Assembly (NCBI GenBank): GCA_951406725.2
Contig: OX597841.1
Coordinates: 21,204,001 to 21,268,000, forward strand
Direction of reading: 5' to 3'
DNA from: Octopus vulgaris
Lineage: Eukaryota
DNA: 64,000 nt
The translations under genes and the position numbers were made by a program. Every line of letters begins with the position of its first letter. Position 1 is the first letter of the stretch. Positions 1,238 through 40,903 of this stretch are shown piece by piece. Below the pieces are notes generated by a model. It was not told the origin of the DNA and made no database searches. It saw only the letters and a program-made list of their open reading frames with translations.

Positions 1238-1407
1238 TTTTACATTGCGGATATTCCAGTGTTGTTATTACTTTGCTTTCGTTATTGCCTGAATCTGACT
1301 GACACTCGGCCAGGACGTCCACATTTTTGATGTATGTTCTTGTCCTATTGCTAACAACGGCTGTCAGCTGACATCCACACATCGACACGTTGTTGCCTCT
1401 GAGGTTT
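1238..1407 (-). CDS. LRRCT-like cap exon [56 protein letters not shown]
   Basis: ttacag acceptor, GTTAGT donor, 170 nt (phase 2 to 1), LxGN...CxC...C...C pattern. Confidence 0.8.
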
Positions 1408-40400: not shown

Positions 40401-40903
40401 ATAGGGGGGGACAAACACACTCACACAAACACACACGCACACACACACATATATATGTATATATATATATATATATATATATATATATATATATATAGGG
40501 GGACAAACACACTCACACAAACACACACGCACATATATATATATATATATATATATGTGTGTGTGCGTGTGTGTTTGTGTGTGTTTGTCCCCCTAGCATT
40601 GCTTGACAACCGATGCTGGTGTGTTTATGTCCCCGTTACTTAGCGGTTCGGCAAAAGAGACCGATTGAATAAGTACTGGGCTTACAAAAAGAATAAGTCC
40701 CGGGGTCGAGTTGCTCGATTAAAGGTGGTGCTCCAGCATGGCCGCTGTCAAATGACTGAAACAAGTAAAAGAGTAAAGAGTAAAGAGTATATCGTCAATG
40801 AAATAGCGTTAACATGAGTGATCCGACTTACAATTCCTTTAAGTTGGTAAGGTCATGGAAGGCTTGTTCATCAATTTCCTGGATTTCGTTATTCCTCAGT
40901 TCT
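1238..40903 (-). CDS. Spliced extracellular LRR protein gene, partial (5' end not seen before the gap, 3' end probably beyond window start): 26 x 72-nt LRR exons, one 48-nt exon and an LRRCT-like exon; possible LRR receptor/GPCR ectodomain
   Basis: Exons located by eye via AG acceptors and GTAAG donors. Each translates stop-free to xLxxNxIxxIxxxxFxxLxxLxxL. All are phase 2/2, and the junction codon between LRR exons is Leu. A Cys-containing cap exon follows. Confidence 0.9.
1460..1850. repeat. Degenerate ~18-bp tandem repeat (atatagatgacatacgac-like)
   Basis: Periodic gatgacatac. Confidence 0.7.
2903..2974 (-). CDS. LRR exon [23 protein letters not shown]
   Basis: 72 nt, ttacag/GTAAGT, LRR consensus. 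Confidence 0.85.
3015..3540. repeat. AT-rich minisatellite, about 9 units of 44-66 bp
   Basis: ttcatgtattaaatattataaacaatttcga+(ttaacataaaa)1-3. Confidence 0.9.
4734..4805 (-). CDS. LRR exon [24 protein letters not shown]
   Basis: 72 nt, ttacag/GTAAGT. Confidence 0.88.
5240..5660 (+). mobile_element. Degenerate RLE-type (R4/Dong-like) non-LTR retrotransposon fragment
   Basis: [18 protein letters not shown]...GIETRIV; related to 30970-31330. Confidence 0.5.
5884..5955 (-). CDS. LRR exon [24 protein letters not shown]
   Basis: 72 nt, ttacag/GTAAGT. Confidence 0.88.
6431..6478 (-). CDS. Truncated 48-nt in-frame LRR exon or pseudo-exon [16 protein letters not shown]
   Basis: Paralog of exon 7351-7422 with a 24-nt deletion; splice sites intact. 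Confidence 0.5.
6700..7160. repeat. (GTA)/(GTG) microsatellite, representative of dozens of (TA), (GAA), (GTA), (AAT) and (GAT) tracts
   Basis: Direct inspection. Confidence 0.95.
7351..7422 (-). CDS. LRR exon [24 protein letters not shown]
   Basis: 72 nt, ttccag/GTAAGT. Confidence 0.8.
8332..8403 (-). CDS. LRR exon [24 protein letters not shown]
   Basis: 72 nt, ttacag/GTAAGC. Confidence 0.88.
8496..8983 (+). mobile_element. Non-autonomous Helitron-like element
   Basis: 3' hairpin cccgagcaacgccggg followed by CTAG|T; multiple copies in window. Confidence 0.75.
10290..10935 (+). mobile_element. RLE-type (R4/Dong-like) LINE fragment, zinc knuckle and endonuclease region, frameshifted
   Basis: [50 protein letters not shown]. 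Confidence 0.7.
11470..11870 (+). mobile_element. RLE-type LINE 3' end with (TAA)n tail
   Basis: VLGALG...[21 protein letters not shown] followed by (AAT)n. Confidence 0.7.
12351..12422 (-). CDS. LRR exon [24 protein letters not shown]
   Basis: 72 nt, ttacag/GTAAGT. Confidence 0.82.
13929..14020. repeat. 15-bp tandem repeat (ataaataaaacaaat), about 6 copies
   Basis: Direct inspection. Confidence 0.9.
14292..14363 (-). CDS. LRR exon (divergent) [24 protein letters not shown]
   Basis: 72 nt, ttacag/GTAAGT; conserved Phe lost. Confidence 0.75.
15447..15882 (+). mobile_element. tRNA-derived SINE family A, representative copy (about 20 full or partial copies, e.g. 12604-13018 -, 18268-18690, 21869-22120, 23434-23835, 27246-27645 -, 34815-35227, 35438-35866, 46314-46655, 57163-57805 -, 58264-58878, 59341-59733 -)
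   Basis: A/B-box-like head (ggctgtgtggtaag...ggttcagtccc), internal (TA)/(TG) tract, (gtaaaaga)n tail; repeated throughout. Confidence 0.85.
16108..16179 (-). CDS. LRR exon [24 protein letters not shown]
   Basis: 72 nt, ttacag/GTAAGT. Confidence 0.85.
17163..17234 (-). CDS. LRR exon [24 protein letters not shown]
   Basis: 72 nt, ttacag/GTAAGT; visible at end of ORF 17159..17344. Confidence 0.9.
17800..17871 (-). CDS. LRR exon [24 protein letters not shown]
   Basis: 72 nt, ttacag/GTAAGT. Confidence 0.88.
19089..19160 (-). CDS. LRR exon [24 protein letters not shown]
   Basis: 72 nt, atacag/GTAAGT. Confidence 0.88.
19267..19611. mobile_element. Penelope-like pLTR fragment in fold-back arrangement (133-bp perfect inverted repeat 19339-19471 / 19479-19611)
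   Basis: Perfect palindrome carrying a hammerhead-like core; tail of the same family recurs at about 56350-56425. Confidence 0.6.
19541..19578 (+). ncRNA. Minimal type I hammerhead ribozyme-like motif (mirror copy 19372-19409 on minus strand)
   Basis: ctgt-CTGATGA-a(cg-gcaa-cg)a-GAAACTCAGAGTA-acag; stem II closing pair is an A.A mismatch. Confidence 0.55.
19900..21127 (-). mobile_element. Mariner (Tc1/mariner) DNA transposon, near full length, transposase pseudogenised (about 19973-20937)
   Basis: TIRs ttaggtggtcaagtatgaaaatttgtag / ctacaaatttcatacttgacgatctaa, TA target duplications; [15 protein letters not shown] and [10 protein letters not shown] motifs with stops and frameshifts. Confidence 0.92.
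21356..21427 (-). CDS. LRR exon [24 protein letters not shown]
   Basis: 72 nt, ttacag/GTAAGT. Confidence 0.88.
22166..22237 (-). CDS. LRR exon [24 protein letters not shown] (copy 1)
   Basis: 72 nt, ttatag/GTAAGT. Confidence 0.88.
24412..24483 (-). CDS. LRR exon [24 protein letters not shown] (copy 2, one synonymous difference)
   Basis: 72 nt, ttatag/GTAAGT. Confidence 0.88.
25450..25521 (-). CDS. LRR exon [24 protein letters not shown]
   Basis: 72 nt, tttcag/GTAAGT. Confidence 0.85.
26720..27105 (-). mobile_element. tRNA-derived SINE family B (also 39586-39963; variants 25672-26335, 28730-29030, 45190-45575)
   Basis: Minus-strand tRNA-like head ggaggcgcaatggcccagtggttagggcagcggactcgcgg...gtttcgattccc; multiple copies. 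Confidence 0.8.
27137..27208 (-). CDS. LRR exon [24 protein letters not shown]
   Basis: 72 nt, ttacag/GTAAGT. Confidence 0.88.
28025..28096 (-). CDS. LRR exon [24 protein letters not shown]
   Basis: 72 nt, tttcag/GTAAGT. Confidence 0.9.
28186..28582 (+). mobile_element. Non-autonomous Helitron-like element
   Basis: A|TC 5' end, hairpin and CTAG|T 3' end; interrupts the exon-flank consensus without TSD. Confidence 0.8.
30075..30146 (-). CDS. LRR exon [24 protein letters not shown]
   Basis: 72 nt, ctacag/GTAAGT. Confidence 0.9.
30603..30674 (-). CDS. LRR exon [24 protein letters not shown]
   Basis: 72 nt, ttacag/GTAAGT. Confidence 0.88.
30970..31330 (-). mobile_element. RLE-type LINE 3' fragment
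   Basis: [13 protein letters not shown]...[18 protein letters not shown]. Confidence 0.65.
31914..31985 (-). CDS. LRR exon [24 protein letters not shown]
   Basis: 72 nt, ttacag/GTAAGT. Confidence 0.9.
32813..32884 (-). CDS. LRR exon [24 protein letters not shown]
   Basis: 72 nt, ttacag/GTAAGT. Confidence 0.9.
34050..34121 (-). CDS. LRR exon [24 protein letters not shown]
   Basis: 72 nt, tcgcag/GTAAGT. Confidence 0.82.
35277..35348 (-). CDS. LRR exon [24 protein letters not shown]
   Basis: 72 nt, ttacag/GTAAGT. Confidence 0.86.
36075..36660 (-). mobile_element. RLE-type (R4/Dong-like) LINE fragment
   Basis: HIISSC...[38 protein letters not shown] (PD..E..K-like restriction-endonuclease domain). 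Confidence 0.75.
37338..37409 (-). CDS. LRR exon [24 protein letters not shown]
   Basis: 72 nt, ttacag/GTAAGT. Confidence 0.9.
40004..40075 (-). CDS. LRR exon [24 protein letters not shown]
   Basis: 72 nt, ttacag/GTAAGT. Confidence 0.9.
40832..40903 (-). CDS. LRR exon [24 protein letters not shown]
   Basis: 72 nt, weaker ttaaag acceptor, GTAAGT donor. Confidence 0.8.

Follow-up and report, generated by a model that had tools for sequence, protein, structure and literature searches.

Can a long series of interchangeable exons, each encoding a single leucine-rich repeat (LRR), provide an octopus with a diversified receptor? The question is raised by a gene in a 64,000-nt window of the Octopus vulgaris genome (GenBank assembly GCA_951406725.2, contig OX597841.1, here C28:21204001-21268000; coordinates without a contig prefix are window positions), in which a first-pass annotation had recognized 26 such exons and proposed an actively expanding, splice- or recombination-diversified receptor. 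Our analysis points to a different answer: the gene, which lacks the membrane half, is probably a derived member of an LRR adhesion G protein-coupled receptor (GPCR) family and is predicted to act as a secreted LRR-only binder with most or all of its repeats spliced in order, and the diversification idea is weakly supported.

The exon array and its receptor ancestry

A window scan for stop-free LRR exons of the form AG-72 nt-GT returned exactly 26, all of phase 2/2 and all on the minus strand between 2903 and 40903, and none on the plus strand, compared with none in 28 and one in 2 of 30 shuffled controls, which reproduces the earlier exon count. Their 3' ends read TT (18), CT (7) or, in the last exon, AT (1), their first base is A in 24 and G in 2, and all downstream donor-acceptor pairings (325/325) rebuild leucine; the earlier rule that any pairing restores this residue was upheld, except that the codon is not always the same. 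The donor is GTAAGT at 25/26 LRR exons, and the introns are at least 456 nt long. Within the repeat, L2 and N5 are invariant and I7, I10 and F15 are conserved at ≥90%, while the canonical F-x-x-L-x-x-L tail is no longer present in repeats 17, 19, 20, 21 and 23. The intron flanks are homologous between units (mean ungapped identity 50-54%, aligned blocks reaching 799 nt), as had been noticed before, and this homology supports growth by tandem exon duplication. Three elements are new relative to the first-pass annotation, namely a 27th unit (48 nt, in frame, internally deleted) found at 6431-6478 with an exon-plus-flank profile, the LRRCT identity of 1238-1407, and a gap at 41710-41809 that cuts the array on its 5' side, so that 26 LRR exons is a minimum. 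No further 72-nt LRR exons of the array type were found in 200 kb of flanking DNA, and none resembling exon 1 or 3 among the best candidates on unplaced contigs. A candidate exon near 3865-3955 was rejected because its phase (2 to 0) is incompatible.

Across the genome, the LRRCT exon is matched 56 times and the signal-peptide/LRRNT exon of a sister gene described below 50 times, both clustering on contigs C29, C30 and C31; the seven-transmembrane (7TM) exon of the family gave 57 matches and its LU exon 65. Against eight genomic paralogues the LRRCT exon showed 42-54% identity with invariant cysteines, and an LRRCT profile search recovered 26 proteins, 11 of them named adhesion GPCR G6- or L2-like. 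All of these LRRCT relatives are Octopus proteins, which suggests an octopus origin of the family and agrees with the earlier view of a lineage-specific array. Pfam identified GPS and 7tm_2 in relatives, with an additional Death domain in P0061, and in members on C26, C8, C29 and C30 the LRRCT exon is followed by LU-like, SEA-like, HRM, GAIN/GPS and 7TM exons. The SEA-like and HRM names in full-length members are presumed labels, and the LU-like cysteine domain matches Pfam weakly (E 0.16), one relative being named Ly6/PLAUR-like. Judged from these homologies, the studied gene is evidently derived from an octopus-expanded adhesion-GPCR family of the layout LRR-LU-SEA-HRM-GAIN-7TM. The number of LRR repeats per paralogue is 8, 9, 9, 19, 27 and, in the studied gene, 26+, so the proposed change in copy number is borne out across the family; since P0066, a full-length receptor model, has 19 consecutive repeats, a long array is not unique to the studied gene. 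P0020, another member, contains LU in three tandem copies, which shows that copy number also varies for symmetric blocks of other exons. In the member at C30:18539001-18600000 the 7TM exons lie on the strand opposite to the LRRCT-HRM exons, with a terminal-exon copy on both strands, a layout that reflects either an inversion or two facing genes.

The family is likely group 3 of the octopus-specific adhesion GPCRs of Ritschard 2019, matched on domain content, not gene identifiers; this group has LRRs in 5/22 sequences and a Death domain in one, and positive selection was reported at branch level and not at site level (PMC6408891; this paper, PMC10138644, PMC5877582 and PMC13428168 are cited from their accessible portions). 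The family is already in print as a GPCR expansion, to which this gene contributes the furthest-reduced architecture, its retained last exon serving to map the deletion. Subscription journals apart, no literature account of LRR-only derivatives of the family or of its LRR exon arrays was found.

The earlier designation of the gene as a receptor was not sustained by the DNA that follows the LRRCT exon. None of the 57 genome matches of the 7TM exon and none of the 65 of the LU exon lies on C28, and tblastn with LU, HRM, GAIN, GPS and transmembrane (TM) exons gave no match in 140 kb downstream of the studied gene or in ~90 kb downstream of the sister gene, with the same queries matching control loci at E<1e-3. 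After LRRCT, the 140-kb tblastn search thus found no GAIN domain with the GPS motif that marks the adhesion-GPCR class, nor is there a secretin-type 7TM region, the terminal exon coming straight after; a TM helix with TIR, as in Toll-like receptors, is likewise absent, a hydrophilic tail and a stop being present there, and no glycosylphosphatidylinositol (GPI) segment follows. In a rough positional pairing of the 56 LRRCT matches, blurred by inversions and gaps, LU was present in 50/56, 7TM in 36/56 and neither in 3/56, two of these three being the studied gene and its sister.

The sister gene (C28:5639235-5698400), 15 Mb away among C2H2 zinc-finger genes, has 27 intact LRR units and 5 atypical ones, along with a signal-peptide/LRRNT exon and LRRCT, and shares the loss of the membrane half, with a stop one residue past the LRRCT join. 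In both C28 genes, the DNA after LRRCT shows homology with full-length members across their last intron, last exon and 3' flank, and we infer as the simplest history a single internal deletion in their common ancestor, in which the LU, SEA, HRM, GAIN/GPS and 7TM exons would have been lost, a phase-1 to phase-1 loss joining LRRCT to the parent's last exon. A milder truncation is seen in the family member P0003, which ends after the SEA-like segment.

The terminal exon of the studied gene starts 393 bases beyond the left edge of the window, at C28:21203607, and lies 1.6 kb from LRRCT in the same frame along a contiguous stretch without an assembly gap. Its acceptor is intact (phase 1), it shows 72% identity over 127 nt with the C26 member in the same phase, and exon and acceptor align with the C26 and C30 members, again in the same phase. 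Splicing from LRRCT to this exon would yield a 22-residue tail, hydrophilic (maximum 19-residue hydropathy 0.38) and resembling the family's tail. An acceptor candidate near 109, first read as that of the last exon, falls inside the remnant of the family's last intron. The LRRCT donor (window 1233-1238) reads GTTAG, as in all eight aligned paralogues, so that an unspliced transcript would stop one codon after LRRCT in every member checked; the protein is predicted to be soluble either way, and donor readthrough seems to be a built-in way to soluble family forms. The relative P0055 ends at this stop. The visible part of the gene is LRR-only in its domain content; with a signal peptide assumed from the sister gene, the product would be a long soluble LRR horseshoe solenoid of about Toll-like-receptor length, capped at both ends and, with 21 sequons in 680 residues, probably heavily glycosylated.

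Selection, transcripts and peptides

At core LRR positions the ratio of nonsynonymous to synonymous substitution rates (dN/dS) is 0.09, and 26 stop-free exons at the observed divergence would be expected under drift with a probability of ~1e-5; the LRR core is under purifying selection. Three presumed-RNA runs (X14, X17, X19) and one DNA run (X4) were placed on 21100-32100, which holds exons 7-15, X14 and X17 representing two studies and two organism labels. Unique intron bins at 29174-29907 had a depth of 0 in all three RNA-like runs and were covered in the DNA run, and exon bins were covered in X14 and X17; X19 had little exon cover and is uninformative either way. Cover confined to exons in the RNA-like runs of two studies points to spliced transcripts. 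The implied depth (bin depth/exon bases) was equal at exons 8 and 9 (32.9/32.9 in X14, 11.6/11.6 in X17), as expected if one spliced contig spans both with edges at the exon boundaries, and the two exons appear to be co-included. At the protein level, the peptides EVFTITCTVPR and IQIGSFDDLR of the relatives P0001/P0032/P0034/P0029 are among the rows listed in a skin-mucus proteome (PMC10138644).

It is very improbable that the locus is a decaying receptor fragment, or an assembly artefact with the membrane half elsewhere. The 5' gap, the missing protein model, one damaged unit and the five atypical units of the sister gene would fit such a fragment, but LRRCT and the terminal exon are joined without a gap, the same deletion recurs in the sister gene, and 26 exons are intact, with a core under purifying selection and RNA cover limited to exons. 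For a secreted protein of this kind, a candidate role would be that of a soluble pattern binder or decoy at the surface of skin, gill or mucus, and surface or mucosal recognition is our best guess.

Age and diversity of the array

In a tree of 81 exon-plus-flank units, in which bootstrap was not settled, the exons of the studied gene mostly fell on a star together with those of the sister gene, with end branches of ~0.2 changes per site. Exons 13/14 were the only young pair (98%), exons 1/3/4/6 and 2/5/7 formed older gene-specific clades, and the arrays on C29 were young. The array itself is, by these branch lengths, apparently old with one young duplicate, and the active expansion attributed to it fits other members of the family better. 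In the X4 contig (organism B), copy-14 letters occur at three places in copy-13 context at 23817-24830, with ~2x the neighbouring depth, and the 13/14 duplication may differ or be collapsed in that organism. A comparison of exon divergence (21-49%) with flanking-intron divergence (15-31%, the 13/14 pair apart) was not relied on, since intron divergence is biased downward by the extension method and divergence at third positions is likewise ~40%.

The first-pass annotation had linked variable repeat surfaces to receptor diversification. When repeats are compared in pairs, concave positions differ in 84% and other surface positions in 74% (P = 0.011 over position choices), against 90% and 86% in Slit3 and 83-88% and 39-48% in two young C29 arrays (P ≤ 0.0014). 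The concave variability of the array is not above that of Slit3 or LRIG repeats, dN/dS at concave positions is 0.87 for all pairs and 0.40 for nearest pairs (few codons, near saturation), and surface dN/dS over all pairs is 0.83-0.87; these values do not support the variable surface as a mark of diversification. These figures also bear on the view that the secreted LRR product serves a function outside immunity (in matrix, adhesion or neural guidance, or as a soluble decoy for the full-length receptors) and that its surface variation mostly reflects relaxed constraint. A surface dN/dS near or below 1, the Slit3- and LRIG-like variability, the five repeats without a canonical tail and the reported expression of the groups specific to octopus in axial nerve cord, suckers, skin and gills (PMC6408891) are compatible with it, but a family that is large, turns over and is represented in mucus fits a role in recognizing targets that change; this view, which shares the anatomy of a receptor-derived secreted protein and differs in function alone, seems to us doubtful.

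Several points weigh against a secreted binder with its repeats spliced in order. The signal peptide/LRRNT exon of the studied gene is hidden by the gap at 41710-41809 and was not seen there; profile and exon-profile searches found no annotated protein model of the gene, and a single-sequence search with the LRRCT exon gave two candidates, neither a match. The RNA nature of X14, X17 and X19 is an automated guess, the listed rows of the junction table for exons 7-15 are repeats only, and the co-inclusion of exons 8 and 9 is read from equal depths. None of seven peptides of the gene (0/7) is among the rows listed in PMC10138644, whose database may lack the gene. P0023 and P0024, two models of one relative, are exactly three LRRs apart, and the modest concave excess over the other surface fits ligand-driven divergence.

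The last two observations would also suit a splice-diversified locus, in which cells skip different subsets of the 26+ exons and secrete an LRR repertoire varying in length and surface, as would the in-frame fit of 325/325 pairings, the concave enrichment both here and in the two young C29 arrays, the unequal implied depths among exons in X14 (33, 42, 48) and LOC115225305, a family member by peptide likeness, in which an LRR peptide is present in 5/7 isoform models and other peptides in 7/7 (PMC10138644). We nevertheless regard such a repertoire as unlikely. The frame fit follows automatically from the duplication of symmetric exons and is common to the paralogues with 8-9 repeats, the donors are uniformly strong, exons 8 and 9 seem to be included together, another relative has four isoforms that retain every LRR and vary at the C-terminus alone, and the depth differences could reflect alleles or the 13/14 duplicate. 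In a simple 9-mer test for a docking-like element, the best window paired with 7-8/26 flanks compared with 5-13 in controls, and no cassettes outside the gene were found in the 200-kb flanks, all modules being in-order exons with splice sites.

For the membrane-half-deleted gene that we favour, ordinary in-frame exon skipping is possible, and occasional shorter forms could arise since any skip keeps the frame. Diversity of the family would be mainly germ-line, coming from duplicated genes and from symmetric exons gained or lost, and occasional in-frame skipping would be incidental to it. A bolder proposal, which we hold to be improbable, is that the adhesion-GPCR family has turned into a secreted recognition system, with repeated loss of the membrane half and a regulated exon-skip repertoire in skin, mucus or haemolymph; if true, this repertoire would be a third route to LRR-based receptor diversity beside variable lymphocyte receptors (VLRs) and plant NLRs. 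We know of no diversified immune receptor in cephalopods, and a family of >50 genes that differ in LRR number, with soluble derivatives and with peptides in skin mucus, is a concrete candidate. The locus shows cleanly how a soluble family member would arise; taken alone, it is an old, constrained array that tempers the claim of hypervariability, and the family's being known earlier lessens the surprise.

Setting of the locus and known systems

Coordinates are collected in Table 1. Exons of a His_Phos_2 gene unrelated to the array (50308-52315, minus strand, and C28:21295668-21295751) head toward the gap. We take this gene to be PPIP5K/Vip1-like from its motifs; a motif of the 3' half of such genes had no match locally or elsewhere in the genome, so a long stretch or a misjoin may be concealed by the 100-N gap. 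Long tandem repeats were seen by eye at 46880-48230 (~60-nt unit) and 3020-3530 (~45-55-nt unit). On the plus strand at C28:21084590-21110800, ~95-120 kb left of the window, lie laminin-G/EGF-like exons of a presumably neurexin-IV/axotactin-like gene.

Table 1. Features of the gene, in order of transcription (window positions unless prefixed)
Feature	Position	Strand	Basis
Assembly gap over gene 5' part (signal peptide/LRRNT exon, possibly more LRR exons)	41710..41809		
LRR exon 1, first visible (gene 5' part in gap)	40832..40903	minus	exon scan, repeat alignment
LRR exon 2	40004..40075	minus	exon scan
LRR exon 3	37338..37409	minus	exon scan
LRR exon 4	35277..35348	minus	exon scan
LRR exon 5	34050..34121	minus	exon scan
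LRR exon 6	32813..32884	minus	exon scan
LRR exon 7	31914..31985	minus	exon scan
LRR exon 8, same implied RNA contig depth as exon 9	30603..30674	minus	exon scan, depth
LRR exon 9	30075..30146	minus	exon scan, depth
LRR exon 10	28025..28096	minus	exon scan
LRR exon 11	27137..27208	minus	exon scan
LRR exon 12	25450..25521	minus	exon scan
LRR exon 13, young duplicate of exon 14	24412..24483	minus	exon scan, block alignment
LRR exon 14, protein sequence identical to exon 13	22166..22237	minus	exon scan, block alignment
Exon 13/14 duplicated block, 97% identical	24377-25173 vs 22131-22928		block alignment
LRR exon 15	21356..21427	minus	exon scan
LRR exon 16	19089..19160	minus	exon scan
LRR exon 17	17800..17871	minus	exon scan
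LRR exon 18	17163..17234	minus	exon scan
LRR exon 19	16108..16179	minus	exon scan
LRR exon 20	14292..14363	minus	exon scan
LRR exon 21	12351..12422	minus	exon scan
LRR exon 22	8332..8403	minus	exon scan
LRR exon 23	7351..7422	minus	exon scan
27th unit, 48 nt, phase 2/2, related to exon 23, splice sites intact	6431..6478	minus	
LRR exon 24	5884..5955	minus	exon scan
LRR exon 25	4734..4805	minus	exon scan
LRR exon 26, ends AT	2903..2974	minus	exon scan
LRRCT cap exon (170 nt, phase 2 to 1), diagnostic of the family, with four conserved Cys	1238..1407	minus	
Remnant of family's last intron, homologous to DNA 3' of 7TM exons in full-length member	9..150	minus	
Terminal exon, in frame, 22-residue tail to stop, just left of window	C28:21203607-21203543		

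Slit- and LGR-type genes carry one 72-nt LRR per exon, and the array belongs to the same repeat class, with Slit3 among the weaker matches, but caps and C-terminal domains differ, and the Slit repeats, which are ancient, have diverged further (core 0.33 vs 0.13 in the studied array). Neither Dscam- nor VLR-like logic, both invoked for the array by the first-pass annotation, was recovered. Dscam-type splicing relies on docking/selector pairing common to the exons. Arthropod Dscam resembles the present gene in its tandem array of duplicated, frame-compatible exons, which in Dscam are mutually exclusive (PMC13428168), whereas here no docking-like element stands above controls, exons 8/9 appear co-included and the models of relatives carry long consecutive runs.

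VLR genes begin, by their mode of assembly, as an incomplete germline gene with flanking donor cassettes, a layout not found here, where the 200-kb flanks hold no cassettes and the modules are in-order exons. Lamprey VLRs share with the octopus gene the LRRNT-LRRn-LRRCT order, 24-residue repeats and a variable concave face, and are built by somatic assembly through cytidine-deaminase-dependent module copying (PMC13428168); the octopus modules, in contrast, are ordinary spliceable exons within a germline gene that is complete and has neither a GPI nor a stalk tail.

The closest likeness is to octopus adhesion-GPCR group 3 (PMC6408891), known in databases as 'adhesion GPCR G6-like / GPR126-like', with which the gene shares homologous LRR exons and flanks, the LRRCT exon and the terminal exon. 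These relatives have GPS and 7tm_2 (one also Death), whereas the studied gene is without LU, SEA, HRM, GAIN/GPS and 7TM, and it carries 26+ LRRs compared with 8-19 counted in other family members; LRR-only members, exon structure and repeat-number variation are not described in the accessible portion of that paper. That a soluble LRR protein can bind microbial patterns has a precedent in the LRR-only scallop proteins CfLRRop1-6, likened here by their described function, several of which bind lipopolysaccharide, peptidoglycan or glucan (PMC5877582); unlike them, the octopus gene is, on the evidence of its homologies, adhesion-GPCR-derived and encodes one repeat per exon.

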